Shown here piece by piece: positions 19,938 to 53,604 of a stretch of DNA of 64,000 bases. Below the pieces are notes generated by a model. It worked only from the letters and a program-made list of their open reading frames with translations. It had not been told where the DNA came from and made no database searches. The stretch lies in assembly GCA_000004985.1 (NCBI GenBank), contig GG738848.1, one strand, 5' to 3'. The position numbers and the translations under genes were made by a program. This DNA is from Naegleria gruberi. Its lineage: Eukaryota. Each line of letters begins with the position of its first letter. The stretch's first letter is position 1.

Positions 19938-20009
19938 GGGACCATGGTCTAGTGGTATGATTTTTGCTTTGGGTGCGAGAGGCCGTGGGTTCGATTCCCA
20001 CTGGTCCCC
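19938..20009 (+). tRNA. tRNA-Pro (UGG).
   Basis: GGGACCA..TGGTCCC acceptor and anticodon loop CTTTGGGT. Matches the canonical eukaryotic tRNA-Pro. Confidence 0.85.
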
Positions 20010-20102
20010 TTATCTTTTGTTTTAAAAGAAATCATTAAGGTACAGTTTTGCAAACCTCAGTAATATTTTTAGAACATTTCAATTCCAAAATTGTAAAATG
20101 TC

Positions 20103-20174
20103 TAGCAAATCTAGGTTTCGATCCTAGGACCTATGGGTTATGAGCCCATCGCGCTTCCGCTGCGCCAATTTGCT
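20103..20174 (-). tRNA. Initiator tRNA-Met (CAU).
   Basis: AGCAAAT..ATTTGCT acceptor, GGCGCAGCGGAAGCGC D-arm, GGGCTCATAACCC anticodon arm, and the initiator-type T-loop GATCGAAACC. Confidence 0.85.
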
Positions 20175-20332
20175 TTGCATTTCTTTTCTTAAAGTTTTTA
20201 TTCTAATTGATATTGGCCAAGTGATGAAAGTGAATTGAGGCAACATTAGCTTTTCACTTTGCAAAGATAAAATTTATTCAAGATTGGAAGAGAAATTTGT
20301 GGAATTATTCTATGAAGGAATTACAGTATTAT

Positions 20333-20971
20333 TTATTGTTGTCCTGAAACAGCTTTCCATGAAGGTCTTGATGAAATCTTTTCCCACCAAGCTTTAACAA
20401 GTGGACGATCCAACAATAAATTACCCAATCCAATAGCGAACAACAAGTTTCCATATGGTAAGTGATACAAATCGGCTAAGGTGAATTGATTTCCACCAAT
20501 GAATTCTTGTTTAGCCAACACTTTTTCATAGGCATCCAAATTGAGTGCTAACTTTTCACTCAATTGTTTGACACGAGCTTCATCAGCAGCTCCATATCCC
20601 ATCATTCCCTTAAATAACTTTTCGAAAACTAAACCAGAAGCATTTGAATCAAAGTAAGCAGTTTCAATGGAAGCACCTTGTTCGAATAGACCCAAAGCTT
20701 TGAGCTCAGTTGGAATGAGTTCAGTTCCTTGGCTCTTATGTTTGGCTTCCAAGTAACGACAGATAGCACGAGATTCATAAATCAAGAACCCATCATCTTC
20801 CAAGACTGGAATGACACCAAATGGATGCTTTTCCAAGTAGGATGGTGACTTGTGTTCTCCCTTCATTAAATCAACAGGAACAAGTTCATATTCTAAACCT
20901 TTCTCCTTGATTGTGGTCAAAACACGTTGAACGCAAGTTGATTGAGCAGCACCATAAATTTTGTAGACCAT
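20333..20971 (-). CDS. Glutathione S-transferase (Ser-type, phi/theta-like), copy A.
   Basis: MVYKIYGAAQSTCVQRVLTTIKEKGLEYELVPVDL...HPFGVIPVLEDDGFLIYESRAICRYL, a thioredoxin-like GST N-domain. ATG lies in an acaaaATGg context. Confidence 0.8.
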   Translation of the reverse strand: MVYKIYGAAQSTCVQRVLTTIKEKGLEYELVPVDLMKGEHKSPSYLEKHPFGVIPVLEDDGFLIYESRAICRYLEAKHKSQGTELIPTELKALGLFEQGASIETAYFDSNASGLVFEKLFKGMMGYGAADEARVKQLSEKLALNLDAYEKVLAKQEFIGGNQFTLADLYHLPYGNLLFAIGLGNLLLDRPLVKAWWEKISSRPSWKAVSGQQ

Positions 20972-21307
20972 TTTGTTATTTGTTATTTGTAATAATACAG
21001 TAAAGTTGTTTTTTTGTGATTGAAAATGCATAATCATTAGTGTGAATGCCATTTATGGTGGATTCTGTATCCGAAACCAAAGCGCTGTCGTGAGCACTAA
21101 TTATTGATCTGTGGAATTTGCGCAAGAAATGAGTGCCATTTCATCCTCTTGGATACTTCAAAATCATGTGAGAGAATGATATTTGTACAATTTTAAATAT
21201 TAAGAATACGAATCAACGGATTGAGTAATAGCATACACCCATTTCCTTAAATTCTAAAACATGTACTGGAATAAATGATTTATCTTACTTATTTCAAAGC
21301 AGTTGAT

Positions 21308-21425
21308 GGCTACGGCCATATCACGATGAATGCACCTCATCCCGTCCGATTTGAGAAGTTAAGCATCGTCGAGCCACATCAGTACTGAGGTTGGAGACAA
21401 CTTGGGAACCTGTGGTGCTGTAGTC
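21308..21425 (+). rRNA. 5S rRNA gene, intact.
   Basis: GGCTACGGCCATATCACG...CATCCCGTCCGATTTGAGAAGTTAAGC...GGTTGGAGACAACTTGGGAACCTGTGGTGCTGTAGTC followed by a T-run terminator. Helix I pairing was checked. Confidence 0.85.
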
Positions 21426-21707
21426 TTTTGTCACTTATTTGTTTTATTCATTAGTTTAAAGTTGCCACCTTAATTGAAAGTCTAGTTTGCTTCTCACATT
21501 CTTTCCAATATTCCAAACACCTTCTTTGGATTCAATCATTGACTGAACTGCTCCATCATAAAAATGATTTATTAAGATTCGCTACATGTTCAATATCAAT
21601 AGTTGAACAAGGCATTAAAATTTATTAAAATACCACAAACATTTTGTCATTCTTCACTCCACAACCAACAGAATAAATACTGTGTGCCTTATGCAATTCT
21701 CAAAACC

Positions 21708-21896
21708 ATCTTTCTCGGCCAATTGGCTTTGATCGAGTGTAGTATCTGTTCTTTTCAGTTTAATAGCTGAAAGCAGCTCACGGGTTGCATCTACTATTAA
21801 CTCAATTTTTTGTAGGGATCAGGGTTTGAGCTTAATTGCTCACTTTGATTTGGTTTCAATCAGACATTGCACAAACCGTCAGATTAGGAGCCACCT
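21708..21896 (+). ncRNA. U2 spliceosomal snRNA.
   Basis: ATCTTTCTCGGCCAATTGGCTTTGATCGAGTGTAGTATCTGTTCTTTTCAGTTTAATAGCTGA..., the canonical U2 5' end. It has the GUAGUA branch-site-recognition element and an Sm site AATTTTTTG. Confidence 0.85.
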
Positions 21897-22290
21897 AACT
21901 CTTTTAATTAATTGAAAATCATTGTTCAAATACAATCTCAATGAGTTTTTCCGAGCATGTATGATGATAAATTAAACATGATGAGAGAGACTCACAACAG
22001 TCCATCAACCACTTAAGCAAGATGAAGTTTAGGAAGTCCAACACAAGAAATTGATGTTTTGGGTTTGTGTGAAAATAAACTACTATATATTATAGTTGTA
22101 AATTGCCAAGCCGTTTCAGCAATTTTTTAAAAAGGTAACACGTGGTTCTCATCATCATTTTTAATATTCTTGATGAATACTCAATATTATTGGACAATCT
22201 TTTCAGAATAGATAATAGACATGTTGGAGAGGATAATGATATAAAATAAGTAACATGGCATAAAAAGTTGAGTGATAAAGAAGCAAAAGT

Positions 22291-22371
22291 TGCAGAAGGT
22301 GGGATTTGAACCCACGAAGCTTGCGCAGTAGAACTTGAGTCTACCCCCTTTGACCACTCGGGAACCCCTGC
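22291..22371 (-). tRNA. tRNA-Leu (CAA), type II with a long variable arm.
   Basis: T-arm GTGGGTTCAAATCCCAC, anticodon stem-loop GTAGA-CTCAAGT-TCTAC, and an acceptor stem with two G-U pairs. Confidence 0.75.
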
Positions 22372-22955
22372 TTCATGTCATTGAACTAAATGTTGGTAAT
22401 ATATAATACTACCATCATTACTGAGCTCGTTCGTATTGTTTTGGAGTTAGATTTCTCTAGACCTTGTTATGACTTTTTCAGCCCTCTAATGACCTAATAA
22501 TACACTAAATCCAGAACGGAATCTATTCGGATAATGAATCTTTCTTTTGATTCAATCGCAAATACAGACAATTTCACATCTAATGCAATAATTTTGCTCC
22601 TTTATCATGAATGAATAGTGCAAGAATTCTTCATCTGTTCTAACAATAACTCCACTCAAAATAAAATTCTCAAAATTTAAACACATTACGACGGATCATT
22701 TACATTAAATTCTTGTTGATTAATACTACTTGAATTGTGGTTACTACTACTTGGAAGTACAAACAATTTCATTGACTTTCAAATTGGATTTGTTTTGCAT
22801 TTTTTTGAACCAGAAAATTATCAACAAAATATTAACAACGATATCTCCTTGTTAATGAAAGATTTTTAACATCTTTCCAAATAATAAGAATAATAATTTA
22901 ATAATTTTTTTGAATTTATTGTGGTGCACCCATACCGTATGGTAGAGTGAAACAT

Positions 22956-23384
22956 TTATCTGTATGACTTTTGGAAACGAGCTCTAGCCTTACGACCACC
23001 GAACTTCTTTGGTTCTCTTCTTCTTGGATCAGCAACGAGGAGGGATCTATCGAATTCCAACAAAGCTTGCTTGATTTCTCTCTTTTGAGCTTCATCAACA
23101 TACTTTTGATAGTAAGAGACGAGACCCTTGCAGATAGCTTGTCTGATAGCATAGACTTGAGAAACCTTACCACCACCTCTGGTTCTGATTCTGATGTCAA
23201 CACCCTTGAATTTATCCTTACCCAACAAGAGAACAGGTTCGAAAAGCTTGAATCTCAAGATTTCTGGTTGGATGTGTTCGAGTGGAGTACCGTTAACTTT
23301 GATGAGACCTTGACCCTTTCTACATTGGGCAACGGCAATAGCAGTCTTCTTCTTACCGAAGGTTTGAACGAGTTCAGCAGACAT
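22956..23384 (-). CDS. rps16: 40S ribosomal protein S16 (uS9).
   Basis: ...[27 protein letters not shown]...[46 protein letters not shown]...[24 protein letters not shown]. Confidence 0.9.
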
Positions 23385-23677
23385 GGCGTTTAGTTATTTT
23401 TTTTCAACAAAATTTCCAAATTTTTGCGGTTTACCACTCACTGGTTGGTATTACAATAAAAATTTTGTACCTGCAAAAGCACCTTGTCCAGCTGCGACGA
23501 ACAATAATAAAAAGGCAACACGCTTGCCCTTTACCATCATAATTATTTAAAATTTAATGAATATGTTATCTTACTAACAACATTGTTATGCTCTGAAGGC
23601 TTATTCTTAATAGCTTCCAATATCCTTCTCATCAGTCGATATAGTGTCATCTAAATGTTTTTAATTAATTTAATTCT

Positions 23678-25405
23678 TTAATAATTAAAATCAAAGGGAG
23701 GAACATCATCAAGATGATGACGAGGATTATCAGTCGAACAACAAATAATAGGAAGGAGAGCTTCAAATAGGCTTTCATCTTCATGCATCCAAGCTGGTAA
23801 TAACATTGAATCATCAACCTTCCTATCTTCCTCTTCTTCATCAAATAGGGAAATATTATGGTGTTTCAAGTAATCTTCAAACACCTGACAATCATCCAAA
23901 TGTTCATAAGGTTCCCAAGTCTCATCTGGATAACCCAACCATTGAATATGATACAAGTAGGATTTTCTAGATTGATCACTTCCCTTGAATACTTTTTCAT
24001 GGTCAACAATAACCTTGATGGTATATTCCTCTGTGGTTGGTTTGGGTTCATACTGTTGATATTCCTCTTCATCACTTTCCTCTTGTTTATCATCACCACA
24101 TTCATTGAAGAGGGCATAATTTCTCTTGATAGGTTTTCTCTTCTCTGTGAGGATTAAACTCTGGTCAAGGCAATCATCACCAAGCTTCTTCTTCATTCTC
24201 TGGCTTTGATAGTAGGGATGGTCAGCTTTGAAAGCATTGAGTGCTTGCCTTTGTCCCATTCCACAATAGACCTTGCTGTGTTTGAAATGTGAACGATGAG
24301 CAAAAAAGATGAAGGAAAATCTCTTCTGTTCATAATCATTGGAAGGCTCTTTGGATGATTGAACTGGGTTGTCTCCATCAGTGGGTTCTTGCTTTGGACA
24401 AGTATTGATAAGAGTTGGAGTATTATCATCAGCTTGAGGATTATTCAATGTTGGAGAAGAATTTTCACAAATTTTCACATCATCAACTTCAGTTTGGGAA
24501 GAATTGGCAAGTGGAAAACTTTGAGGACGAGTTGGAGAAACAGCATGACGATACTTGTTAGCTCTCAGCAAGACAACATCACCTGCTTGAATGTGGACAA
24601 GTGTTTTTGGAGTATGTTCATTCACTCGAATCAATTGAAGGGATCCACCTCCAAATTTTCCCATATAGAACATGGCAGAGATTCCCATATCATTTCTGTC
24701 ACGATGATTTGTCTTTGGACGATTGACTTTATCTGTAGACTTATATGAGCCTTGGAATTTCTCCTTGACTGATTCATTTCTTGTTGGAATCATGTTGAAA
24801 CATACAACTGGAGTTTGACCTCTTTCTGTCAATTTGGATAATTTAGCAAATAGTTTGGGATTTGCCAATTCCAAAATATGTTGAAAGGTATCATGTAAGA
24901 GAGCTTGTATCTGTTTCACTTTGGTATCAACTAGCTCAAATCGAAAGCTATCAGCACATTTGTATCCCATTGGCATATTCATTGTCCACCATCCAGAAAA
25001 GAAACTTCCCTTATCAATATCCTTTTCAGTAGCTAACCATTCACTCATCTCCCTACAAAGTTGAGTGCATTCTTCCAATAGACTTGGAGGCAATACTGAT
25101 TTCAACAAGGCCATTTCAACCATTCCTTCTTTTGTGACGATAATAGTATTTGAGGAGATTTCTTTTGGAATGGTATCATTTACACCATATACTGATAGAA
25201 TGGGTTCATTGGATTGAATATTATTTCCTTTAAGGAATTCCCATTCTTTTATCATTTTGTAAACTCTAGTTTTACCAGATTCATCTATGCTTTTCTCATT
25301 TTCCCAACACACTCTTGTTAAGGCTTGAGCTTTCAAAAATTGTTTCTTTCGTCTTCTGTGTTTGGGTTTCTTCTTGTCGTGCTGAGATACATGCAGTGGA
25401 CCCAT
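23678..25405 (-). CDS. AlkB-family 2OG-Fe(II) dioxygenase fused to a C-terminal chromodomain.
   Basis: HRDRNDMGISAMFYMGKFGGGSLQL...IQAGDVVLLRANKYRHAVSP...RFSFIFFAHR gives the HxD...H...RxS dioxygenase pattern. The C-terminus has YTIKVIVDHEKVFKGSDQSRKSYLYHIQWLGYPDETWEPYEHLDDCQVFEDYLK, a chromo fold. Confidence 0.65.
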   Translation of the reverse strand: MGPLHVSQHDKKKPKHRRRKKQFLKAQALTRVCWENEKSIDESGKTRVYKMIKEWEFLKGNNIQSNEPILSVYGVNDTIPKEISSNTIIVTKEGMVEMALLKSVLPPSLLEECTQLCREMSEWLATEKDIDKGSFFSGWWTMNMPMGYKCADSFRFELVDTKVKQIQALLHDTFQHILELANPKLFAKLSKLTERGQTPVVCFNMIPTRNESVKEKFQGSYKSTDKVNRPKTNHRDRNDMGISAMFYMGKFGGGSLQLIRVNEHTPKTLVHIQAGDVVLLRANKYRHAVSPTRPQSFPLANSSQTEVDDVKICENSSPTLNNPQADDNTPTLINTCPKQEPTDGDNPVQSSKEPSNDYEQKRFSFIFFAHRSHFKHSKVYCGMGQRQALNAFKADHPYYQSQRMKKKLGDDCLDQSLILTEKRKPIKRNYALFNECGDDKQEESDEEEYQQYEPKPTTEEYTIKVIVDHEKVFKGSDQSRKSYLYHIQWLGYPDETWEPYEHLDDCQVFEDYLKHHNISLFDEEEEDRKVDDSMLLPAWMHEDESLFEALLPIICCSTDNPRHHLDDVPPFDFNY

Positions 25406-25619
25406 TTTTTGTGAGAAATTATTAAAACAACCATAAATCGTTTGAATTTATTACAATCTAATGTGAAAATCTGAGGATTCTCTTTGATTCTGAAATGAAA
25501 GAGTTGATGACGGTGAGCCGCGACTTGCAGTTGTCCTCAAATTTTTTGAATTGTTTATTTAAATAAATTAATTTTATGGAATAGTTAAGAAATTAAATAT
25601 TTAATTGTTTATAATAAAA

Positions 25620-26693
25620 TTATTGAACAGGAGTGGCAATATTTGTTGGATCCAATAAAGGAGCAGCACCAGGTATGGAGAAGAGTGGCTTGGCATAACT
25701 AAATGTAAGGAAGAAGAATAATGGGATTTGGAGAATTGCCACAATGAAAATGAAATAATTTCTTTTGGCTGTATTAGTATCCAACCTTAATCTCATACTA
25801 TTGTCTGAGGAGTGAACACTAGATCTTCTCAAAGATTTAATCATGAAAGTAACCATCATAATTCCAAGGATTAATAAAGAAGGATAATAGGCATAATTTC
25901 CAAATAATAATGACAATACTAGAGTGATGATAATGCCAATATACTTGTAGCCAGAGAATGCAGCAACATCAAGTACACCCAAGCTGCTTTGAACACCCAA
26001 GGCATAAAATCCAAATTTCACAATGGCAATTTCCAAAAGTGATGTTATAAATCCTTTCATTCCGATACTGTACAACAATTCAGGTTTAAATTCCTTGTGT
26101 GCTCCCATAATAAAACAAACCAATAATACATAGGTAATATATCCCATCAATGGAATATACAAATCAGGGTCACTTAAATGACGTTCTTGAGTTTGATTTT
26201 GGTTATTATTATTGTATTCATAGCTTGTATCAAACTTTTTAAATGGGAATAAAACAAGGAGTAATTTTCTGCTCACATAACTATTAGTAACATTAAAATA
26301 ACATTTAAGTCCATCAAACCATTGCCAATATCTACTAGTCACTTCATTAGTCTTTTCTCCTACACTTCCATATAATTGATTCACTCCCATGTTGATCATA
26401 AAATCAGCTGTTGGATTTTGAAAAAGATTAGCACCAGCTGATGTATTATTACCGAAAAATCCTCCAAATAAACCACCAAAACCTGGAGCATTCATTCCTT
26501 GATTATTCATCGAACCATCCATTGCTCCCGAAGAATTATCCATCATTTGTGGGGATGAAGCTCCTCCTATACTTCTCGAACTAAATCCAGAGTCAAAGAA
26601 ATCAAGAGATTGTTGTGGTGTTGGTGAGGTTGGATCGAAAGAGCTTGGAAAGCTTCCAACATCATCGAAAAGGGCACTTCTACGATCGTTCAT
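25620..26693 (-). CDS. YIF1-family (Yip1-interacting factor) Golgi membrane protein.
   Basis: YWQWFDGLKCYFNVTNSYVSRKLLLVLFPF plus multiple C-terminal transmembrane segments. The N-terminus is Gly/Phe-rich. Confidence 0.7.
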   Translation of the reverse strand: MNDRRSALFDDVGSFPSSFDPTSPTPQQSLDFFDSGFSSRSIGGASSPQMMDNSSGAMDGSMNNQGMNAPGFGGLFGGFFGNNTSAGANLFQNPTADFMINMGVNQLYGSVGEKTNEVTSRYWQWFDGLKCYFNVTNSYVSRKLLLVLFPFKKFDTSYEYNNNNQNQTQERHLSDPDLYIPLMGYITYVLLVCFIMGAHKEFKPELLYSIGMKGFITSLLEIAIVKFGFYALGVQSSLGVLDVAAFSGYKYIGIIITLVLSLLFGNYAYYPSLLILGIMMVTFMIKSLRRSSVHSSDNSMRLRLDTNTAKRNYFIFIVAILQIPLFFFLTFSYAKPLFSIPGAAPLLDPTNIATPVQ

Positions 26694-26875
26694 TTTTTTT
26701 AATTATTTAATTCTTATTGACACGTATTTGCTGTATCATCTCATTAACAAATAGAAAAAGAGTAAATAATGACAACGCTTTTGGTGCATTCTAACGAAAG
26801 CGATTTTGGAAAACGATGATTATAGATAATATAAAATGATTGAATATTGTTTATTCATTAATAAAATAAACACAA

Positions 26876-26948
26876 GCAGCGATAGATCAGTTGGTTAGAT
26901 CGTAAGCCTAACACGCTTAAGGTCGCGGGTTCAAGCCCCGCTCGCTGT
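26876..26948 (+). tRNA. tRNA-Val (AAC).
   Basis: D-arm GATCAGTTGGTTAGATC, anticodon loop CTAACAC, T-arm GCGGGTTCAAGCCCCGC. Confidence 0.8.
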
Positions 26949-27075
26949 ATCCTTTTACTATTAAATGACATCATTGATCTTTTTAGAGTGAGAAAAAGAC
27001 TTAGATGCTATAGATGTGAAATAAGATCCATGCCATCTTTTAAGAATTGAACCTTTTGAGGTACAAGGATATAAT

Positions 27076-28215
27076 TTATTGGTATGAAAGTAAACCAAAT
27101 CTTTCGTTGTTGGTACTTGCATTTGAGCTTGCAAACATTTTGATAACCAAAGGAGGGATCAATAAAACTAGTGGAATAGACAGAGTACGGAAAAGATAAC
27201 CATTCAAGAATCCATTATTTACAGTCATATCCTTCAAACTATCACTACATTCTTCATGGAGAGTGGTTGCAACACAATCCTTAACACTTGAATATTTCTT
27301 TACAAATCCTGGTTGACCATTAACTTGTAATTTTCTAGAGACTGTATCAAATGGATACAGTAAGAAATAGATTAAACTCTTAAAGAGATAACTTCTGGCA
27401 ATAAACATGAGTTTACCCTTCAAGAATTCCTTTGGTTTACCAAGAGTTTCTGTCAATTGAGAGTAGAAATTCTTCATGCCTTGTTTTGTGACATCCTTCC
27501 AAGAACCAAAGAGTTTGCCCTTTTCTTGGACAACATTTTCCACATAGGCATTCAATAAATGAGTTGGTGTTGATACAAATACAGTTCTAAATAAGAAACC
27601 TCTATAGAAAGCATGTGAAATAATTGAAAAGAAACTTGCTTGTTCACCAGAGTTTTCCAATTCTTCCTTACTATCACTATACATTTGACGAATACAATCC
27701 AATAACCCTTTGAATTGGAATGTTTGTCCACCAATAAATTTACCATCCTCTGATCTATCAGCCATATAAACAATTTCAATTAAATCCAAAGGATACATGA
27801 CAATATCTGTCAAGATTGAACTGATAGCAATCTTTAAATTATCATTTGAAACTCTTGTCAAGACATGTTTTTGCAAAATGTGTTGAACGGCAAGAGATGG
27901 AATATTCTTCACCAATGTATAAACCAAAGTCTTCCACAATGAAAACAATCCATCATCGGCAGCAATCAATGTTGGTGCACTAAACTTTTCATGGAAATAA
28001 TTCAATTTATCGTGTTCGGGAATTTTAGAACATGATTGAGTTTGCAGAATAATTTGTGTTCGATAAAGTGGATGGATCATGAGTTGTGTTGCTGCTTTAG
28101 CACTCCATGATGGAAGCAGAGCATTCCTGGCAAAGAATAAAACTCGATCACCGTATGATGATGATGGCGGAGATGGAATGATTGAATTTCCGCTTAGAAT
28201 ATCAGCCAGTGCCAT
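27076..28215 (-). CDS. Divergent mitochondrial-carrier (SLC25-like) family protein.
   Basis: Three carrier-like signature segments: HPLYRTQIILQ, YPLDLIEIVYMADRSEDGKF and YPFDTVSRKLQVNGQPG. ATG lies in an aaaaaaaaATGG context. Confidence 0.5.
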   Translation of the reverse strand: MALADILSGNSIIPSPPSSSYGDRVLFFARNALLPSWSAKAATQLMIHPLYRTQIILQTQSCSKIPEHDKLNYFHEKFSAPTLIAADDGLFSLWKTLVYTLVKNIPSLAVQHILQKHVLTRVSNDNLKIAISSILTDIVMYPLDLIEIVYMADRSEDGKFIGGQTFQFKGLLDCIRQMYSDSKEELENSGEQASFFSIISHAFYRGFLFRTVFVSTPTHLLNAYVENVVQEKGKLFGSWKDVTKQGMKNFYSQLTETLGKPKEFLKGKLMFIARSYLFKSLIYFLLYPFDTVSRKLQVNGQPGFVKKYSSVKDCVATTLHEECSDSLKDMTVNNGFLNGYLFRTLSIPLVLLIPPLVIKMFASSNASTNNERFGLLSYQ

Positions 28216-28353
28216 TTTTTTTGATTGTTTTTTAATTTTAGAAAGCAATTTGAAATTGGTTTTTAAATGCAATGATTCAATTTTGATTGGGTTTTAGTGA
28301 GCTGTTGAGAGGAGTGATTGATACATTTTCAAATTAATCAATTTATGGATGGA

Positions 28354-29412: not shown

Positions 29413-29460
29413 TTTTTTAGATTAATTGTAAAGTTGTCAACCAAGATGTTAATGTGAAAA

Positions 29461-30341: not shown

Positions 30342-30550
30342 AATATTGAATCTTTCTAAAAACAAGTATTTAATGTTTTGGCAATTTTTTTCAATTTTAA
30401 TAATTAATTTTAATAATTTAATCAATTATAATATCAATTAAGAAGTTCTTGAAGGGTTTATCGCGGATATCTAAAAACTCTATTACTGAATCTAATCTCA
30501 ATCATTTTCCATCAACCACTTTAACAAGGTTTCCAAAACCTGAACGTATA

Positions 30551-43434: not shown

Positions 43435-44661
43435 TTTTTTTAATTAATTATTGGAATTTTATTTGTGGATTATTTCATATCTGTTGTAATTGTTTGGTCA
43501 ATTCATGGACAGACAGATCAGCATTTGAAATAGGCTAATAAATCTAAATTTTAATTACAAATTAAAAAATATAAATTATTAAAATTAGGTGAGTTACTGT
43601 TTTTGTATCATTACCGGAATGAAAATAACAAATTAGCAACATAGATGAATAGTAAGGTCGTTGGCAATGTTTGATTTGGTCAACTACTGTAAATTGGGTA
43701 AATCAATTATTATGAATGCAACACTTATTTCGATACAATGGTTGCATGGTTGACTGTAACACTTTCAATCCGCTTATAAACTCCTTCGGATTAGGAAGTA
43801 CAAAAATCTTGTACGATTGTCTTATACGACTTTTTAACCAATTCATCTATTCTACATTTTTGATTGAATTCAACTAATGAGACCATTTAAATTATTATCA
43901 ACTACTGTAGTTGCTGCACTTTACAGTTCGAATCGAATAGAAACAATTTCCTTGAAATTGATCGAAAATGAATGTAATAGTCATTGTATTTGATTTTCAA
44001 TGATTTGTGATCAAGCCAACTCCACTAAACACATAATTCCTTTCAATATTCCAATTCAAATCACCAAATAGAAGCCACCAATTTCAGATGAATTAATCAA
44101 ATGTTTATGGCAATGAAGGAACTTGGTAATCATCTCTCACTCGTTGGTTTTTTGAAAAACTTTTCATCGGCTAAGAGATGACAATTTTTCAACGATACCA
44201 TTTCAACTACTACCTATTCCTTACTCAATTATAAAATCTTATTCAATACATCTTCATTAATTCCGATAGCTAATACAAAGTTTTGATTGCAATGGACTTT
44301 TTCCTCTTCATCACGTTCGAACAGCGAGCTTGACTGGTGAGGAATGAAAAGGCGGATGCGACTGAAGCGCGGAGAAGTAAAAAACTTGAGGCGTTCTTTT
44401 TGTTTTTTACGAAGAGCGACTTGCTAGAAACCATTTAAAGAATCATCAAAAAGCAAACCTTTAAAAAAAAGAAACACAACAATTATCATAGCAAGCAACG
44501 ACTCTTAACGTGCTGCTCCTGTAATACTATCACCTACTAACCTAACGAATACTTGAAACAAACCGTGACGAGGCAACACGAATTTTTTTACATCAGAATT
44601 CTCTAGTGTTTGCATCCCTATCATCATATTAATAGTAATTCATCATATTTTCAATAAGAAA

Positions 44662-45201
44662 ATGGGACAAAATTCATCTTCTCACGATCGACACGAAAGT
44701 AAGAGGAAGAAACAAGCTAAAGTTGTCATGATTGGATTGGACTTTGCTGGAAAGTCATCAATAATGTACAAGATGAAGCAAAAGAAGAATCTTCCATCGA
44801 CAGTGCCTACTCTTGGGTTTAATGTTGAAGTGTTAAAGTATAAGAGAGTTGTGTTCACATTGTTTGATATTGGTGGATTATTCCTCAAGACCAAACAGTT
44901 GGCACAACATTATTTCGAGAAGAATCAAGCTGTGATTTTTGTGATTGACTCAACTGATAAGGCCAGAATGAATGATGCCAAACAAACTTTGCATTTGATC
45001 ATGGATGATCAATTGGTTTCTAATTGTAAATTATTGGTATTGGCTAACAAGCAAGATCTACCAGATGCTATGAGTGTAGATGATGTTTCGAGAGAATTAA
45101 ACTTGATGGATATCAAGCAAACTTGGTCGATTCAAGGTTCGAGTGCCAAGACAGGTATTGGATTATTGGAAGGACTTGACTGGTTATCAAAGAATGTGTA
45201 A
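44662..45201 (+). CDS. ADP-ribosylation-factor-like (ARL) small GTPase.
   Basis: MGQ.. start, VVMIGLDFAGKSSIMYK, PTLGFNVEVLKYKRVVFTLFDIGG, LANKQDLPDAMS and SAKTGIGLLEGLDWLSKNV. Confidence 0.85.
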   Translation: MGQNSSSHDRHESKRKKQAKVVMIGLDFAGKSSIMYKMKQKKNLPSTVPTLGFNVEVLKYKRVVFTLFDIGGLFLKTKQLAQHYFEKNQAVIFVIDSTDKARMNDAKQTLHLIMDDQLVSNCKLLVLANKQDLPDAMSVDDVSRELNLMDIKQTWSIQGSSAKTGIGLLEGLDWLSKNV

Positions 45202-45522
45202 TTCTCTTAACAACACTCAGGTTTGATTCCTACCTGACATGCTAATTGATATTTTGAAGAAACACTTGGATGATTGTAGAGCAATATGGCTCGAAATATA
45301 TTGAAATTACTACATGTTTCTCAAGGAGCTTGGAGTTCTCTTGTGAATCACAAGTGTAGTGTATGAGTGATTAATAAAATCTAACAAAACCCAAACACTT
45401 TATTTTGCTCTTTACATTAGTAACTTCCAAAAGAGTAAGTAACTCAATTTTTGTAACAATTTAAAAGTCTTAATTTTGTAAAGACTTTACTGGTTTTATG
45501 TAAATTGGTATGAATAAATTTA

Positions 45523-46569
45523 TTATTGAAAATCAAAGATTGCACCACAATCGATTGCATCTGGATTTTCCACCTCTTGTTGGGTTTGTTGTATTGAGTT
45601 CGAATTTGGAACCCCAAGAGGCACGAAAACACTCTGCATCAACTGGACATATTGCACATAAGAAAGGGAATTCTGTAATTGTTTTGCAATGTGTTGGAAG
45701 ATCTTTGCTTGCTCTTCTTTGCTAATTCTATCTATTATTTCCATAATAATCTCTTGTTCTGAGTTGAATTCAATTGTAATTTCTTCTGACACTGACACTT
45801 TCAAATCTAATTCATTTTGTAAGGGATCTTCTCTGTCAAAAAGAGTTGGTCTTCCTGTATCTTGTATTTCATTTATATCGAAGAAGGATACACCTTTGCT
45901 CTTGGCATAATTAGAATCCGAATAATCCTTGTAACTTCCCTTTTTGAGTCTCACTGTGTTGCTGGCTTTCTCAGTCATTACATGAATGTCAAAAGTGCCA
46001 TCATCATAGGAAATCTTCCAAGCAAAGGTGGATGGTGAATTTTGTGCATTCTCCAAATCCAACATTGATGAGTAGTATTCCTTGCGAGATACTGGTTTAC
46101 AATCTTTCTTGATTACTGATTTGCCAAGAGGTGAGTAAATTAGTTGGTAAAGTGACACCTCATTCACATTTCCAAAAGTAGCAATCGCAGGTTTGTATCT
46201 GATGTTAAATATTAAAGATGGTTCGTCATTACTTTCATCTACAAAAAGACCTAACGAACAATATTGAATAAAGTCTTGTCCATGAGTCTCTGTAATATCT
46301 ATCAATTGTTTGACATCTTGTTTGGATTGACTGCACTCGAATTGAAGTGACTTCATTACAACTGGCCAAAAGATCTTCCTCTTATTCTTTTGAGTAGGGG
46401 TAGTGGAAGAACCTTCACCTTTATCTGTTGATGATCCTGTTTTGACCTTCTTGATCTCTTCCGGTTCTTCAAAGCCTATTTTCTTCTCAATAATAGAGTC
46501 ACAATCCTCTTCCTCCTTTTTAACCTTTTTGTTGCTGCGACTGGTGGTTGTTTGCTTTCTCTTTGGCAT
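45523..46569 (-). CDS. Hypothetical nuclear protein with an N-terminal basic NLS-like region.
   Basis: MPKRKQTTTSRSNKKVKKEEE... . No confident domain call; I rejected PCNA-like for lack of evidence. Confidence 0.4.
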   Translation of the reverse strand: MPKRKQTTTSRSNKKVKKEEEDCDSIIEKKIGFEEPEEIKKVKTGSSTDKGEGSSTTPTQKNKRKIFWPVVMKSLQFECSQSKQDVKQLIDITETHGQDFIQYCSLGLFVDESNDEPSLIFNIRYKPAIATFGNVNEVSLYQLIYSPLGKSVIKKDCKPVSRKEYYSSMLDLENAQNSPSTFAWKISYDDGTFDIHVMTEKASNTVRLKKGSYKDYSDSNYAKSKGVSFFDINEIQDTGRPTLFDREDPLQNELDLKVSVSEEITIEFNSEQEIIMEIIDRISKEEQAKIFQHIAKQLQNSLSYVQYVQLMQSVFVPLGVPNSNSIQQTQQEVENPDAIDCGAIFDFQ

Positions 46570-47111
46570 GTTATTGGGTATTTTTTTTGATGTTATTTGC
46601 GTGATGACGGCTAATCATTATGAACCCAACACAAACAAATTTGCTCACAATATTTTTTGTTGGTTCAAATTTGTGGCAAGGTTACTATGGAAGCGCAGCA
46701 ACAATTTCTGTGTTTTGGTGGGCTATTTCTGATTTTGTGTTGTTGGTTGTTTTACAAAAAGGAGATTGTTATGCATGACATAATTTGGTGGAAGTGGACT
46801 ATTTCTTCTAAAAAAGATAGGTGTTATGCCACCTATCCTCCACCAGAACCTTATGGAACGAACTGAGGTATTCAAAGAATTACAAATTAAGGTGGATTCT
46901 TCACATACTGTCACTTTTATAAAAATTCTTATTATTTTTCAAATTTTTTGCATGCCCTCAAAAATGGTTCCAAACCTGAAGTTATTTTCTCTATCAATAT
47001 AATAGATAAGGAAATGATTTTTGAAGGAATGATAGTCTTATATGTCTGGATTATGTGGTTAAAATCATACAGTCAAATACCTGATATTAAGGGTAAAATT
47101 GAATATTGAGT

Positions 47112-47182
47112 TGCGTCGACCGGGAATTGAACCCGGGTCACGGCGATGGCAACGCCGTATTCTACCACTAAACCATCGACGC
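47112..47182 (-). tRNA. tRNA-Gly (GCC).
   Basis: GCGTCGATGGTTTAGTGGTAGAAT..TTGCCAT..CCGGGTTCAATTCCCGG..TCGACGCA. Confidence 0.85.
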
Positions 47183-47315
47183 CTCTTGTTAAGGTATTAA
47201 GGATGCTATTATTGAACATATTTTTCAAGCGTGATAAGCCTGGAAATTATGTTTTTGTTGTCATAATTTTGATCGATTTTCGAAGCAAACCAATTCTTCC
47301 TTCACTTTAAAAAAA

Positions 47316-48707
47316 ATGAGAATACACGAAATTACATTCACAGAGCAAGGTTTGATGCACGCAGGCCTTGCCGACTGCAAACCATTCGAAAATTCAGCCA
47401 CTCTTTTCAACAATGGAATGGAAACAGCCATTCTAATATTTTCTGTTTTGGACGAAACTGCCTCTGATCAACCAAAATATATTAATCACATTTCCACCGA
47501 ATTTACACAAATTGGATTACTTCCTCCTTCAATGCTTGCTAACAAATTCATTCATGACATTCCGAATATTTCATCACGTCAACCAAGAGTTGAATATTTA
47601 CGAAGTGATGGAAAATTCAACGATGCGAAACATTTGTTTATTGCCTTCTTTTCCAAATCGTATTTTGATCAAACTAAACCGAATGATGATTTTGTAAAGA
47701 GGTTGTTTTCAAGAATTTACTGTGATATTGAACAATATCAAATTAAACATTTGATTATGGAACAATTGGTTTTACCAGATACCGAGGCACATTTTGAATG
47801 GAATAAGGTATTGAGAAATTGTGAAATGTGGAAGAGTTCACTCATGAATTACTTTTCAGAGCTTGATAATTGTTTGATTATGTGTCCAAAAGAATGTGTG
47901 TGGAATCATTATTTGAATGAGTGTAAAACTGTTTCAACTGTTATGAGTTATAATGTATTGGCCCAAAGTTATACATCCACACATTATAATTATTGTAAAC
48001 CTTATATTGGATTTGGTGTGAGAACTCCAAAAATTGTTTCATTGGTGGATTCAATTCAAGCTGATATTCAAATGTATCAGGAAATGGAAAAGGACATGCT
48101 TCAACAGTTGACTAAACCTCACCATCACGTCTTATTCAAACCAAAGGAAGGAAGAAAGGAAGGACTTGCCATCATTATTGACAAACGAGTGTGGGACATC
48201 ACAAAGGAAGGCAGTAACAAGTTGGCTCTAAACCATCCTCAAGATATGATTTTCGTAGCATGTCGACACAAGTTCACTAAGAAAACACTTCTGGTTGTGT
48301 GTACTCACTTACTTGGTGATCCAAAGCAATTAGATATCCAAACAGAACAAGCCAAAGTCCTAGCCAATCGTTCAGATATGACCAAACTAGAATGTGCATG
48401 TGAAAATGTCATTATCGGTGGTGATTTCAATGCCTCACAAGAATCTCAAGCTTATCAAGTTGTTGAGCAAGCTGGTTTCAAGAGTGCAATCAAGGAAATT
48501 CATGGAAAGGAACCTACCATCACATTCAATACTGATGCCATTCACCGATCCATTGATTACTTGTGGTACAATTGCTCTACTATCATGCCTTCAACCTGCA
48601 CAATTTTCAATCAGAAACAAATTGAAATCAAGAAGGAAGAAGCTCTTCCAAATCATCAATATGGCTCGGACCACATTCCAATATTTGCCAAATTTGTGTT
48701 GAATTAA
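47316..48707 (+). CDS. Endonuclease/exonuclease/phosphatase-family protein of the CCR4/nocturnin/angel deadenylase type, with an N-terminal extension.
   Basis: VMSYNVLAQSYT, IIGGDFNAS and GSDHIPIFAKF catalytic motifs. Confidence 0.7.
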   Translation: MRIHEITFTEQGLMHAGLADCKPFENSATLFNNGMETAILIFSVLDETASDQPKYINHISTEFTQIGLLPPSMLANKFIHDIPNISSRQPRVEYLRSDGKFNDAKHLFIAFFSKSYFDQTKPNDDFVKRLFSRIYCDIEQYQIKHLIMEQLVLPDTEAHFEWNKVLRNCEMWKSSLMNYFSELDNCLIMCPKECVWNHYLNECKTVSTVMSYNVLAQSYTSTHYNYCKPYIGFGVRTPKIVSLVDSIQADIQMYQEMEKDMLQQLTKPHHHVLFKPKEGRKEGLAIIIDKRVWDITKEGSNKLALNHPQDMIFVACRHKFTKKTLLVVCTHLLGDPKQLDIQTEQAKVLANRSDMTKLECACENVIIGGDFNASQESQAYQVVEQAGFKSAIKEIHGKEPTITFNTDAIHRSIDYLWYNCSTIMPSTCTIFNQKQIEIKKEEALPNHQYGSDHIPIFAKFVLN

Positions 48708-48887
48708 ATCCTTTGTTTATTATTAAATATATAATTAATTGTATAATAATTAAAGTATTTAATAGTAATTAAGATAAAATTGAAAACATTTACGCCATCA
48801 CCAGCCGTTATATATTTTTTTAAAAAAATAAAAACAAAAAAACATCAACTTCATCAAATAGTAATAATTCAAATATTTTTATTCTTC

Positions 48888-50057
48888 CTATTGATAGGTA
48901 ATCAAATATTCAGGATAGGCTTGCTTATTATCATAGACAATAATTTCCTGTCCTCCCCATCCAGTAACACTATCAAATCCCTGCGGAGCAATCTTAATCG
49001 TCTGCATCATATTCATATTAGCATCATATGAATGACCAACAAGTACTCTCACAATGAACATTCTTCCATTATTACTATTACCAGCATATCCGAGAGAGTA
49101 GGAAGCATTGGGACTAAAGTAAATTCCATTTCCAAATTTCCCACTATTACTCACTCTTGCATCGAAACCTTCCTTGGCAATTAAATCAGCAAATTGTTGT
49201 TGAGTTCCGTGGAAGAGTTGTTTCTCATTGTGGTTGGCTTTCATGTTCTGCTTTTGAAGACTGTACCAATTCCATCGAATGTAATTTTCAATTCGTTCAA
49301 TTTTGAGAATGGTTTTACCTGTGGAGGTTGAGGAAAAGAGCTGAGAACAATGTTGAAACTCTTTGGAGGAGGTGGAAAGTGTTACTATTCGAAAGTGTGG
49401 TTTCATGAGAGGGTTTTTGGAGAGTTTGGGAGGATTTTCCCATTCCTTTGGCCATGAAGAGATGCAATTCACTTGTGTGTTGCTGGTTGAATTGGTTGCC
49501 TTGCTTTCATGTATAAATGAATAGCAATGTGAAATATCTCCAGATAGATACTTTTGACAGGAAGTAGCATCTTGGCATGTATGGAAATAGTGAAGGCAAT
49601 GCTCTTTCTGTTGGAGTTTAGTACACTTTGAATCGTATTTGCATGGATGGACGAATCTGGATCTGTGAACAGAATCAGTAATCATGGAACAGTTTGCTCC
49701 CTTCTTACATGGATGATAATACTTTTCACCATGATCAACATGATCCCTATAGTTTGTTTTGGTACATTTATCCCAATGTTTACAAGGCACCTTGTCTTTT
49801 AATTCATTAACTTTGGTTGAAGTTGATGATTTCGTTGTTTTGCTGCAGCTTGGTGATGAGGAATGGCTGGTTGTTGGTGTTGTACTTGTGGATTGGATTG
49901 TGGATTGTTGTGGTTTGACGTAATTGACAGGAAGAAATTGTGGATTAGCTCCTGTTGTCATGTATCCAACAATTTGTGGCACCGTTCCTTGAGGGATATT
50001 TTGTGGAGGTTGGGATGAAACACTTGGTGTGGGCAATGTTGGATTGTTTTGCTTCAT
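48888..50057 (-). CDS. PARP catalytic-domain protein with three PBZ-type (C2H2 poly-ADP-ribose-binding) zinc fingers and a Pro/Gln/Thr-rich N-terminus.
   Basis: Fingers: CKHWDKCTKTNYRDHVDHGEKYYH, CKKGANCSMITDSVHRSRFVH and CKYDSKCTKLQQKEHCLHYFH. Catalytic region: LFHGTQQQF...GFDARVSNSGKFGNGIYFSP...GQEIIVYDNKQAYPEYLITYQ. Confidence 0.75.
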   Translation of the reverse strand: MKQNNPTLPTPSVSSQPPQNIPQGTVPQIVGYMTTGANPQFLPVNYVKPQQSTIQSTSTTPTTSHSSSPSCSKTTKSSTSTKVNELKDKVPCKHWDKCTKTNYRDHVDHGEKYYHPCKKGANCSMITDSVHRSRFVHPCKYDSKCTKLQQKEHCLHYFHTCQDATSCQKYLSGDISHCYSFIHESKATNSTSNTQVNCISSWPKEWENPPKLSKNPLMKPHFRIVTLSTSSKEFQHCSQLFSSTSTGKTILKIERIENYIRWNWYSLQKQNMKANHNEKQLFHGTQQQFADLIAKEGFDARVSNSGKFGNGIYFSPNASYSLGYAGNSNNGRMFIVRVLVGHSYDANMNMMQTIKIAPQGFDSVTGWGGQEIIVYDNKQAYPEYLITYQ

Positions 50058-50143
50058 TTTTTTGATAGTGTGAATTGAGAATTTTCCATGTCAGCCTTTT
50101 CTGACAAGCGCAAAGATTAAAAAAAATATTAACAACTGACACG

Positions 50144-51310
50144 ATGCATCAGCCAAACAATCCGAATGGCACAAATAATAATAATTGGCAACAGTTTCCG
50201 CAACAGCAAATCTATTTGCATCAGCAACCACAAGGTCAAGTATTTCCGCACCAACAATTACCAATGTATTGTCAACCGTACCAAATTATTCAAATTCCTA
50301 ATGAAATGATTCAACCATCAACACAACAAGTTTCATCTCAACAAACAATGCTACCAAACGTGATGCTCAGTTCCACTTCAACTTGTCCACAAGATTTTCA
50401 CAATCAAGTACCAGAAAGAGAGGATTTTTGCACTGATTGGAGATTATGTTCTGAAACAAAAGATCAGAAACACAGATGCACCAAAAGACATTTATGTACC
50501 ATCAAGAATTGCTCCAAAACTAGTGATAAGGTTCATGTTGGCAGATTCTTGCATTATTGTAAATATGGTGAAAAGTGTCGTCACATAGATGATGATAATC
50601 ATAATCATAACTTTATTCATCCATGCAAGTATAAGGGAGATTGTAAAAAGCTTGGAGACATTATGCACAGAATTTTCTTTACCCATCCAACAATAGCTGA
50701 CAATGGCTTGTATCCAAGATCTTGGGGAAAGGTGTTGGACGATCATTGTAAATGTGTTAAGCTTTCACATAGCTCTTCAGAATTCAAAGAGGTAGAGAAA
50801 ACATTTATTCAAAGAATTAATCACAGCCATCCAACTGCTCAAGTAATCGACATTGAAAGAGTGGAAAATGCCAAGTTATGGAGAGCTTTCTCAATTAAGA
50901 AATCAGAAACCATTCACAAGAATCAAAATATCAAAGCTGAAAATCAAGTGAAAACACTCTACCATGGAGCTGAAGAAACAGCAGTCGATGCCATCACCAA
51001 AACAGGATTTGATTATAGACGATGCCAAGTTGGACATTATGGACATGGAAATTATTTTGCAGTCAATGCTAGTTATAGTCATGGTTATGCCAAGCCATCA
51101 ACTTCTGATGGTAGTAGAAGGATAATTGTTTGTAAGGTAGTTGTTGGAGAATCTCTCAGAGTAGCACAGAAGGATAATACTCTGAGAAGACCTCAGGATA
51201 AGACAACAGGTAAAATGTATGATTCAGTACAGGGAGGACCAACAGGAACTGAATATGTAGTATTCGATAACGAATCTCCATATCCTGGATATATTGTAAT
51301 TTACAAATAA
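50144..51310 (+). CDS. Paralogous PBZ zinc-finger PARP protein, divergently transcribed from the gene at 48888..50057.
   Basis: Fingers: CTKRHLCTIKNCSKTSDKVHVGRFLH, CKYGEKCRHIDDDNHNHNFIH and CKYKGDCKKLGDIMHRIFFTH. Catalytic region: LYHGAEETAV...GHYGHGNYFAVNASYSHGYA...GTEYVVFDNESPYPGYIVIYK. The two start codons are 86 bp apart. Confidence 0.75.
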   Translation: MHQPNNPNGTNNNNWQQFPQQQIYLHQQPQGQVFPHQQLPMYCQPYQIIQIPNEMIQPSTQQVSSQQTMLPNVMLSSTSTCPQDFHNQVPEREDFCTDWRLCSETKDQKHRCTKRHLCTIKNCSKTSDKVHVGRFLHYCKYGEKCRHIDDDNHNHNFIHPCKYKGDCKKLGDIMHRIFFTHPTIADNGLYPRSWGKVLDDHCKCVKLSHSSSEFKEVEKTFIQRINHSHPTAQVIDIERVENAKLWRAFSIKKSETIHKNQNIKAENQVKTLYHGAEETAVDAITKTGFDYRRCQVGHYGHGNYFAVNASYSHGYAKPSTSDGSRRIIVCKVVVGESLRVAQKDNTLRRPQDKTTGKMYDSVQGGPTGTEYVVFDNESPYPGYIVIYK

Positions 51311-51533
51311 TATATACTGTCGTTGATTTTCACACAAACGCAAAACATCAATTTCTTGTCCTCCACTTGCTTAAGTACTTTCAATTAATCGAACAATTTC
51401 AGTGGAACGATTTCAACGAGTCTCTCTCATCATGCTTTTTTAATTTAATTCTCAAGTAGGAATTTTCAAAAACTCAATTTTACTGATTGAGATTGTATTT
51501 GTGCAATGAATTTTCAATTAATTAAAAGAGTTA

Positions 51534-51721
51534 GGCGGCTCCTAATCTGACGGTTTGTGCAATGTCTGATCGAAACCAAATCAAAGTGAGCAATTAAGCT
51601 CAAACCCTGATCCCTACAAAAAATTGAGTTAATAGTAGATGCAACACGTGGGCTGCTTTCAGCTATTAAACTGAAAAGAACAGATACTACACTCGATCAA
51701 AGCCAATTGGCCGAGAAAGAT
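51534..51721 (-). ncRNA. U2 snRNA, copy B (right arm of the inverted repeat).
   Basis: Reverse complement of the 21708..21896 copy, with a few substitutions. Confidence 0.8.
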
Positions 51722-52012
51722 GGTTTTGAGAATTGCATAAGGCACACAGTATTTATTCTGTTTGTTGGGGAGTAAAGAATGACAAAATGTTTGTGGTATT
51801 TTAATAAATTTTAATGCCTTGTTCAACTATTGATATTGAACATGTAGCGAATCTTAATTAATCATTTTTATGATGAGCAGTTCAGTCAATAATTGACTCC
51901 AAAGAAGCTGTTTGGAATATTGGAAAGAATGTGAGAAGCACCAGGTTAGATTGCCAATTAAAGTGGCCAAAATTGATAAGTAAACTTGAACTAGTGCAAA
52001 AAACAAAAAGAC

Positions 52013-52055
52013 TACAGGGATGAGGTGCATTCATCGTGATATGGCCGTAGCCATT
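52013..52055 (-). pseudogene. 5S rRNA pseudogene. It carries an internal deletion of about 75 nt.
   Basis: The reverse complement reads GGCTACGGCCATATCACGATGAATGCACCTCATCCC|TGTAGTC. The middle of the gene is missing relative to the 21308 copy. Confidence 0.75.
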
Positions 52056-52555
52056 CATTAATGTAAACTAAGGTTTTTCAAAATGTTCAAAAATTGCAAG
52101 TTAATTCACTTTAAGAGGATTGTTAGCGATCAACTACTTTGAAATAATTAAGATAAATCATTTATTCCAATACCATTTCCAACACAATGCACCATCTGCA
52201 ATTATTGCCCTCATGGAATCCCTATTTTCAGTTTCGAATCATCAAAATCTCTTTCTCCAGCTCGACGTTATAGAATTTAAGGGAATGGGTGTAAGCTATT
52301 ACTCAATCCGTTGATTCGTATTCTTAATATTTAAAATTGTACAAATATCATTCTCTCACATGATTTTGAAGTTTCCAAGAGGATGAAATGGCACTCATTT
52401 CTTGCGCAAATTCCACAGATCAATAATTAGTGCTCACGACAGCGCTTTGGTTTCGGGTACAGAATCCACCATAAATGGCATTCACACTAACCATTATGCA
52501 TTTTCAATCACAAAAAAACAACTTTACTGTATTATTACAAATAACAAATAACAAA

Positions 52556-53194
52556 ATGGTCTACAAAATTTATGGTGCTGCTCAATCTACTTGCGTTCAA
52601 CGTGTTTTGACAACAATCAAGGAGAAAGGTTTAGAATATGAACTTGTTCCTGTTGATTTAATGAAGGGAGAACACAAGTCACCATCCTACTTGGAAAAGC
52701 ATCCATTTGGTGTCATTCCAGTCTTGGAAGATGATGGTTTCTTGATTTATGAATCTCGTGCTATCTGTCGTTATTTGGAAGCCAAGCATAAGAGCCAAGG
52801 AACTGAACTCATTCCAACAGAGCTCAAAGCTTTGGGTTTATTTGAACAAGGTGCTTCCATTGAAACTGCTTACTTTGATTCAAATGCTTCTGGTTTAGTT
52901 TTCGAAAAGTTATTTAAGGGAATGATGGGATATGGAGCTGCAGATGAAGCTCGTGTCAAACAATTGAGTGAAAAGTTAGCACTCAATTTGGATGCCTATG
53001 AAAAAGTGTTGGCTAAACAAGAATTCATTGGTGGAAATCAATTTACCTTAGCCGATTTGTATCACTTACCATATGGAAACTTGTTGTTCGCTATTGGATT
53101 GGGCAATTTATTGTTGGATCGTCCACTTGTTAAAGCTTGGTGGGAAAAGATTTCAGCAAGACCTTCATGGAAAGCTGTCACAGGACAACAATAA
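52556..53194 (+). CDS. Glutathione S-transferase, copy B. It differs from copy A at 3 amino-acid positions.
   Basis: Same ORF as 20333..20971, on the inverted-repeat arm. Confidence 0.8.
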   Translation: MVYKIYGAAQSTCVQRVLTTIKEKGLEYELVPVDLMKGEHKSPSYLEKHPFGVIPVLEDDGFLIYESRAICRYLEAKHKSQGTELIPTELKALGLFEQGASIETAYFDSNASGLVFEKLFKGMMGYGAADEARVKQLSEKLALNLDAYEKVLAKQEFIGGNQFTLADLYHLPYGNLLFAIGLGNLLLDRPLVKAWWEKISARPSWKAVTGQQ

Positions 53195-53365
53195 ATAATA
53201 CTGTAATTCCTTCATAGAATAAATTCCACAAATGTCTCCAATCTTGAATATCAATTTTTTTATCGTTGCTCAGCAAAGTGAAAAGCTGTATTTAATTTGC
53301 CTCAATTCACTTTCATCACTTGGCCAATAGCAATTAGAATACAAACTTTAAGAAAAGAAATGCAA

Positions 53366-53437
53366 AGCAAATTGGCGCAGCGGAAGCGCGATGGGCTCAT
53401 AACCCATAGGTCCTAGGATCGAAACCTAGATTTGCTA
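53366..53437 (+). tRNA. Initiator tRNA-Met (CAU), copy B.
   Basis: Identical to the 20103..20174 gene. Confidence 0.85.
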
Positions 53438-53532
53438 TTCATTTTACAATTTTGGAATTGAAATGTTCTAAAAATATTACTAAGGTTTGTAAAACATGCA
53501 CCCTTAATGTTTACATCTAAAACTAAAGATAA

Positions 53533-53604
53533 GGGGACCAGTGGGAATCGAACCCACGGCCTCTCGCACCCAAAGCGAGAATCATACCACTAGACCATGG
53601 TCCC
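53533..53604 (-). tRNA. tRNA-Pro (UGG), copy B.
   Basis: Canonical TCTCGCTTTGGGTGCGAGA anticodon arm. Copy A has two C-to-T changes that convert pairs to G•U in that stem. Confidence 0.85.

Follow-up and report, generated by a model that had tools for sequence, protein, structure and literature searches.

Does the long inverted repeat in this stretch of the Naegleria gruberi nuclear genome (64,000 nucleotides of contig GG738848.1, assembly GCA_000004985.1; hereafter the window) work as a switch that flips the segment between its arms, or does it record a past duplication? Each arm carries genes for tRNA-Pro, initiator tRNA-Met (tRNA-iMet), a glutathione S-transferase (GST), 5S rRNA, and U2 small nuclear RNA (snRNA), and the two arms bracket a gene-dense interior. 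Our analysis strongly favors an ordinary, moderately old inverted segmental duplication, in which a block of about 2.2 kb holding these five genes would have been copied to a site ~31 kb away in the opposite orientation, with the right-arm locus as the probable source of the copy. The structure is not a new kind of element, shows no evidence of an inversion switch, and calls for no new mechanism.

The inverted repeat claimed in the original prediction was borne out by a repeat search, by self-BLAST of the window (E=0), and by alignment of the arms, and the gene content and order that had been proposed (tRNA-Pro, tRNA-iMet, GST, 5S, U2) held in both arms. Six collinear inverted blocks, with a complementarity of 82-98% in the repeat search, pair the arms, which lie 29,193 bp apart:

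19931-22104: left arm, 2,174 bp (repeat search, window self-BLAST)
51298-53611: right arm, the reverse complement of the left arm, 2,314 bp (repeat search, window self-BLAST)
22105-51297: interior, 29,193 bp, no strand assigned
19931-20040 and 53502-53611: inverted block 1, 92%
20045-20243 and 53297-53495: inverted block 2, 97%
20305-21260 and 52267-53222: inverted block 3, 98%
21488-21553 and 51875-51940: inverted block 4, 95%
21554-21919 and 51510-51875: inverted block 5, 98%
22028-22104 and 51298-51374: inverted block 6, 82%
52055-52264: extra DNA specific to the right arm, upstream of its 5S remnant and on the minus strand, comprising 76 nt (52055-52130) and 91 nt (52174-52264)

As in segmental duplications generally, there are two copies of more than 1 kb, more than 90% identical and in opposite orientation on one chromosome; the cargo consists of host genes, each arm has unique sequence on both sides, and transposon ends were not seen. 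Mismatch between the arms amounts to 2-11% depending on the segment. By feature, the alignment showed identity at 72 of 72 positions for tRNA-iMet, 70 of 72 for tRNA-Pro, 625 of 639 for GST, and 190 of 194 for U2, and the non-coding parts were 89-97% identical with ~40 indels. Divergence with indels near the 5S gene had been anticipated and was confirmed by gaps of 75, 76, and 91 nt, of which the 76- and 91-nt segments may be either right-arm insertions or left-arm deletions. The outer breakpoint lies only 7 bp from the tRNA-Pro gene.

The protein-coding gene of the cassette gives the clearest record of what has happened to the two copies since they arose:

20333-20971, minus strand: left GST gene, 212 aa, intronless, 100% identical to N. 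gruberi EFC49408.1 (NAEGRDRAFT_30189)
52556-53194, plus strand: right GST gene, 212 aa, intronless, 100% identical to N. gruberi EFC49259.1 (NAEGRDRAFT_60266)

Both proteins carry the Pfam domains GST_N and GST_C, and both accessions are annotated on one 712,659-bp N. gruberi scaffold. They differ at two residues (S201A and S209T) and not at three, as first supposed, the third position lying upstream of the real start codon. Twelve of the 14 nucleotide differences between the genes are synonymous and two non-synonymous, yielding a dN of 0.004, a dS of 0.094, and a dN/dS of 0.043; these values therefore show that purifying selection has acted on both GST copies over considerable time.

The small-RNA genes, placed with ARAGORN and Rfam, have fared less evenly:

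19938-20009, plus strand: left tRNA-Pro(UGG), 55.7 bits
53533-53604, minus strand: right tRNA-Pro(UGG), 62.4 bits, anticodon stem fully Watson-Crick
20103-20174, minus strand: left initiator tRNA-Met(CAU), 72/72 identical to the right copy
53366-53437, plus strand: right initiator tRNA-Met(CAU), assigned from ARAGORN/Rfam and sequence hallmarks
21308-21426, plus strand: intact 5S rRNA gene, 105 bits, nearly identical to N. fowleri 5S
52009-52052, minus strand: 5S rRNA pseudogene, a 44-nt remnant made up of 36 nt of the 5' end and 8 nt of the 3' end
21706-21899, plus strand: left U2 snRNA, 115 bits
51531-51723, minus strand: right U2 snRNA, 109 bits

The tRNA-Met genes were assigned to the initiator class by the established eukaryotic hallmarks, namely A1:U72, A54, A60, and an anticodon stem closed by three G-C pairs (GGG/CCC). 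In the left tRNA-Pro, the 5' strand of the anticodon stem bears two C>T changes that create two G.U pairs, in agreement with the two stem transitions previously described and with the lower score of this copy. The clean internal deletion of about 75 nt that had been reported for the right 5S gene was likewise found, at exactly 75 nt in the arm alignment, and Rfam gave no right-arm 5S above threshold. The U2 copies differ at four positions (73, 78, 153, and 188 of the gene), one of which produces a C.U mismatch in the right copy where the left has a U.G stem pair. In both arms a T4 run starts 2-3 nt past the U2 3' end (21900-21906; 51524-51530), and the motif AATAAATA lies ~30-37 nt upstream of U2. 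Both U2 copies look functional.

The cassette copies have thus changed in several ways since the copying itself. The 75-nt deletion destroyed the right 5S gene and the left tRNA-Pro gained its two wobble-forming transitions; both GST genes have been retained by selection, the initiator tRNAs are still identical, and both U2 genes are apparently functional. The main effect would be extra dosage of GST, initiator tRNA, and U2.

A third copy of the GST locus allowed the changes to be polarized and suggested a direction for the duplication. This copy (L001) is a 1,090-bp metagenome contig from ENA ERZ929261 that encodes exactly the GST paralogue P0002, which is placed on a 350-kb scaffold in the N. 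gruberi reference. The same metagenome contains an RPS16 contig (L009) with one mismatch and one 12-nt gap relative to the window, and because this contig is near-identical, the source of ERZ929261 can be regarded as essentially the same organism; L009 ends 18 bp past RPS16, short of the arm. The similarity of the L001 contig to the cassette begins 221 bp upstream of GST and extends 27 bp beyond the stop codon. Forty base pairs after GST the contig holds a truncated, frameshifted aldo-keto reductase copy, 93% identical to 54536-54685 of the window. Both tRNAs are missing from it, as is the 5' half of the aldo-keto reductase gene, whose full version lies just outside the right arm:

54019-55221, plus strand: aldo-keto reductase gene with two short introns

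Since part of this right-arm neighbor recurs in L001, the older arrangement and the parent copy are probably to be seen in the right-arm locus. The duplication that produced L001 would have been earlier, with an endpoint unlike that of the arms, and this difference in endpoint fits segmental duplication rather than a discrete mobile element. A second aldo-keto reductase gene at 12863-13951 (minus strand) raised the idea of a wider mirror duplication with the gene at 54019-55221 (plus strand); it was rejected, the two proteins being only 33% identical.

The GST family as a whole places this event in a series. At least five N. gruberi GSTs share 96-100% identity and are distributed over four scaffolds (other scaffolds of the family carry EFC40803, EFC37458, and EFC45992), and one more stands at 81%. 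In a neighbour-joining tree the N. gruberi GSTs formed a clade of their own, and within it the two arm copies grouped together; nucleotide comparison with L001 backed the arm copies as mutual closest relatives. Duplications of the GST locus form a series specific to N. gruberi, of which the cassette is part, and the copying of the cassette would be one of several lineage-specific events, at least one of them earlier and with another endpoint. A more distant, P0007-like GST paralogue (81% identical DNA) was seen in the same metagenome on contig L008 (1184-2275), where a tRNA-Trp gene lies 374 bp upstream of the GST start; 5S occupies the equivalent place in the arm cassette.

Whether the arms still recombine is the question on which a flip-flop arrangement depends. 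According to the original prediction, homologous recombination between the arms should invert the interior and generate flip-flop isomers. If this happened often enough, cells or populations would hold both orientations of the 29-kb segment. A pair of 2.2-kb inverted repeats sharing ~97% identity can formally serve as a substrate for homologous recombination. However, known flip-flop repeats, such as the plastid inverted repeat and those of the 2-micron plasmid and of herpesviruses, keep virtually identical arms, and near-identity was not what we found here: the mismatch of 2-11% and the ~40 indels are accompanied by differences that are evenly spread along the arms. With L001 as the outgroup, 6 sites were derived in the left arm, 11 in the right arm, and 28 were specific to the outgroup, and the left- and right-derived changes alternated along the arms. 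The longest perfect arm-to-arm identity was 125 bp, which by a rough estimate is about the length expected by chance at the observed density of differences. Given the interleaved derived sites and this short maximal run, the polarized arm alignment therefore shows no sign of conversion tracts or concerted evolution, and the two arm copies are shown to have evolved independently since the duplication. This absence of homogenization is evidence against regular flip-flop inversion. Nor was a recombinase, transposase, or integrase detected in a Pfam scan of the 31 open reading frames (ORFs), each of 150 aa or more, that lie between 8.5 and 59.5 kb.

The gene order of N. fowleri was compared as well. 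An 11-kb locus on VFQX01000068.1 (L004 10001-21146) contains orthologues of five window genes in the order YIF1(+), RPS16(-), kinase(+), RhoGEF(+), gene X(-), and its counterparts occupy 464-8349, 22956-26693, and 59577-61858 of the window. The order there is RhoGEF(+) at 0.4 kb, gene X(-) at 6.8 kb, the left arm, RPS16(-) at 23.0 kb, YIF1(-) at 25.6 kb, the right arm, and kinase(-) at 59.6 kb. The whole window is, as judged from this comparison, an old conserved neighborhood that has been expanded and scrambled in N. gruberi. Both arms sit in intervals whose gene order is unlike that of N. fowleri; RPS16 lies next to the left arm here, on its inner side, and in N. fowleri adjoins the kinase that here lies outside the right arm, which would be compatible with arm-mediated inversion. 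However, synteny is too scrambled to speak for or against such an inversion, since the head and tail adjacencies of N. fowleri are reproduced by the interior in neither orientation and several independent rearrangements would be needed. Taken together, active flip-flop with frequent recombination between the arms is very unlikely, and the prediction of isomers was not upheld. Rare arm-mediated inversion of the interior could occur in principle; regular flip-flop is without indication. We also regard as unlikely, to a slightly lesser degree, a scenario in which occasional recombination leaves populations polymorphic for the 29-kb block of ~20 genes, or in which the cassette is repeatedly copied and spreads RNA polymerase III (Pol III), snRNA, and GST genes, or both.

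The same observations speak to the genuineness of the duplication. The sequence of both arms derives from one draft assembly, in which a lone cassette, or an allelic haplotype of it, could conceivably have been entered a second time in inverted form. Against this, the window is contiguous and contains no Ns, unique flanks border each arm on both sides, and the arms are separated by a GST dS of 0.094, by the indels of 75, 76, and 91 nt, and by a 5S gene that is dead in one arm only, a pattern unlike that of a collapsed repeat or a misplaced allele. Moreover, both arms carry derived changes relative to the third genomic copy, and an assembler would not be expected to seat an allelic copy seamlessly 31 kb away. 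An assembly artefact is accordingly a most improbable explanation, and the inverted duplication is very likely genuine, as had been claimed.

A third explanation holds that 5S, U2, and the tRNAs are kept together by selection as a small-RNA expression unit, U2 being dependent on its Pol III-transcribed neighbors. In trypanosomatids, which share the Discoba with Naegleria, snRNA genes depend on upstream tRNA genes, and the T4 run downstream of U2 in each arm would suit Pol III termination of the kind seen in those organisms. This run is the one hint of Pol III transcription, and the earlier label of U2 as a Pol II gene is likewise no more than putative. In the left arm, 5S and U2 have the same orientation and are separated by ~280 bp, well within 1 kb of each other. 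Linkage of 5S to snRNA, spliced-leader (SL) RNA, and tRNA genes is documented in protists, and the discobid Diplonema papillatum has a tandem SL-5S-U2 repeat unit (PMC10161547). Yet the upstream neighbor of U2 here is that same-orientation 5S gene and not a divergent tRNA gene ~100 bp away, and the single 5S gene observed in N. fowleri has no U2 in its vicinity. In other eukaryotes, the internal promoter of 5S lies in the region corresponding to the deleted 75 nt. Because the right U2 is conserved beside a 5S remnant that has lost this region, dependence of U2 on 5S appears unlikely. A selected expression unit thus seems highly improbable. A head-to-tail tandem array of homogenized units was absent, the 64 kb holding two inverted copies of which one has its 5S deleted. 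Two metagenome scans for U2 and 5S patterns specific to Naegleria returned 0 matches.

These findings also alter the setting in which the arms had been viewed. Their content, although correctly read, is less unusual than had been proposed, given at least five near-identical GST loci and the known linkage of 5S with snRNA and tRNA genes (PMC10161547). The comparison with paired tRNA genes of dictyostelids used the wrong frame, as the locus belongs to Naegleria gruberi (Heterolobosea, Discoba).

Within Naegleria, GST and 5S genes were found together once more. On N. fowleri VFQX01000009.1 (L002 10001-11842), GST is followed within ~1.1 kb downstream by tRNA-Ser(AGA) at 11083-11163 and 5S at 11724-11842. 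An ancestral GST-5S linkage was considered and set aside: the proximity is probably coincidental because RNA genes are absent within 10 kb both of the N. lovaniensis orthologue of this GST and of a further paralogue. An ORF with a DDE_Tnp_4 domain was noted at 13037-13765 of L002.

Further small-RNA genes were recorded in the window, which in its 64 kb holds 11 tRNA genes plus a tRNA pseudogene, a single 5S gene plus the 5S remnant, and both U2 genes, mostly clustered near the arms (16226-22371; 53366-58125). Directly left of the left arm lies a smaller inverted repeat of 120 bp with 96.7% identity:

16220-16339, minus strand: left member of the 120-bp repeat, around an elongator tRNA-Met gene (16226-16298)
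19500-19619, plus strand: right member of the 120-bp repeat, around an identical elongator tRNA-Met gene (19541-19613)
56992-57056, minus strand: additional (third) initiator tRNA-Met copy, flanks included, a pseudogene, 89% identity over 104 nt

The elongator pair encloses 3.2 kb with three ORFs, including proteins with RGS and START domains (17.7-19.4 kb). The copy at 56992-57056 was called a pseudogene because a 7-nt deletion removes the anticodon; neither ARAGORN nor Rfam called it.

The interior contains four tRNA genes (tRNA-Leu, Val, Arg, and Gly) and protein genes for RPS16, a chromo-domain protein, YIF1, a mitochondrial carrier, a short-chain dehydrogenase (SDR), DnaJ, two Arf-family (Arf-like) GTPases, RNase H, a methyltransferase, DUF4116, G8 and CEMIP-like proteins, and two PARP-like proteins. 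The window YIF1 is 100% identical to an N. gruberi protein on the 712,659-bp scaffold. The two genes with PARP catalytic domains form a divergent pair at 48888-50057 (minus strand) and 50144-51310 (plus strand), with proteins 32% identical to each other and Cys/His-rich N-terminal halves; the stop codon of the latter gene overlaps the inner end of the right arm. The G+C content of the window is ~33%, which fits N. gruberi. Weak direct repeats (74-77% identity, 110-177 nt) occur at 5728-6280 in a stretch of low G+C (23-26%).

That the arms are the terminal inverted repeats (TIRs) of a ~33.7-kb mobile element, or the cassette itself a mobile multi-gene unit, is extremely unlikely. The long terminal inverted structure, the five or more near-identical GST copies on four scaffolds, and the tRNA-Pro gene 7 bp from the outer breakpoint would suit such an element. 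However, the Pfam scan of interior ORFs turned up neither a transposase nor an integrase nor a polymerase B, and comparison by eye of the sequence flanking 19931 and 53611 on the outside revealed no direct repeat that would indicate a target-site duplication. Moreover, the interior is of housekeeping character with RPS16 and YIF1 as ancestral neighbors (they are adjacent in N. fowleri too), and the third GST copy has another endpoint, running into the aldo-keto reductase gene. A giant TIR transposon was rejected on the same grounds, namely the missing transposase and target-site duplication and the housekeeping interior.

An inverted segmental duplication therefore remains the preferred account, and some points weigh against it or parts of it. 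The placement and orientation of the arms rest on the internal evidence of one assembly, and both GST annotations stem from that same assembly. The direction of copying, with the right arm as the probable parent, rests on one 1,090-bp metagenome contig. Finally, if other GST loci carry 5S, U2, and tRNAs, the cassette would behave more like a repeated unit than like a one-off.

No description of this locus or of its small-RNA genes was found in the literature searched. The analysis adds small-RNA genes to the N. gruberi reference (two U2, an intact and a dead 5S, two initiator tRNAs, and two tRNA-Pro) and documents a 5S-U2-tRNA linkage in a heterolobosean, which is mildly interesting. It shows recent lineage-specific amplification of one GST locus and provides a cleanly dated duplicate pair with complementary decay, in which 5S was lost in one arm and tRNA-Pro was weakened in the other.

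Among known systems, the plastid inverted repeat, the yeast 2-micron plasmid, and herpesvirus genomes resemble the Naegleria locus in that long inverted repeats bracket a unique segment. Their arms, however, are virtually identical through recombination, in contrast to Naegleria arms that differ by 2-11% and by indels, and the 2-micron plasmid encodes a site-specific recombinase of a kind that was not found among the scanned ORFs. The SL-5S-U2 unit of Diplonema papillatum belongs to another discobid and shares with Naegleria the close placement of 5S and U2, here within 280 bp and near tRNA genes; unlike that unit, the Naegleria cassette forms no homogenized tandem array and occurs as two inverted copies 31 kb apart, with one dead 5S and a GST gene inside the unit. 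The tRNA-dependent, Pol III-transcribed snRNA genes of trypanosomatids are similar in that a U snRNA lies among Pol III genes and is followed by a 3' T-run, and they differ in having a divergent tRNA ~100 bp upstream, where the Naegleria U2 has a 5S gene in the same orientation. The closest likeness is to the low-copy inverted segmental duplications of eukaryotic nuclear genomes, with which the locus shares two copies of more than 1 kb, more than 90% identity, non-transposon genes, unique flanks, separate divergence of the copies, and one duplicate member (the right 5S) in decay. What distinguishes the Naegleria example from these is its cargo of one protein-coding gene together with four small-RNA genes, and an outer breakpoint that abuts a tRNA gene.

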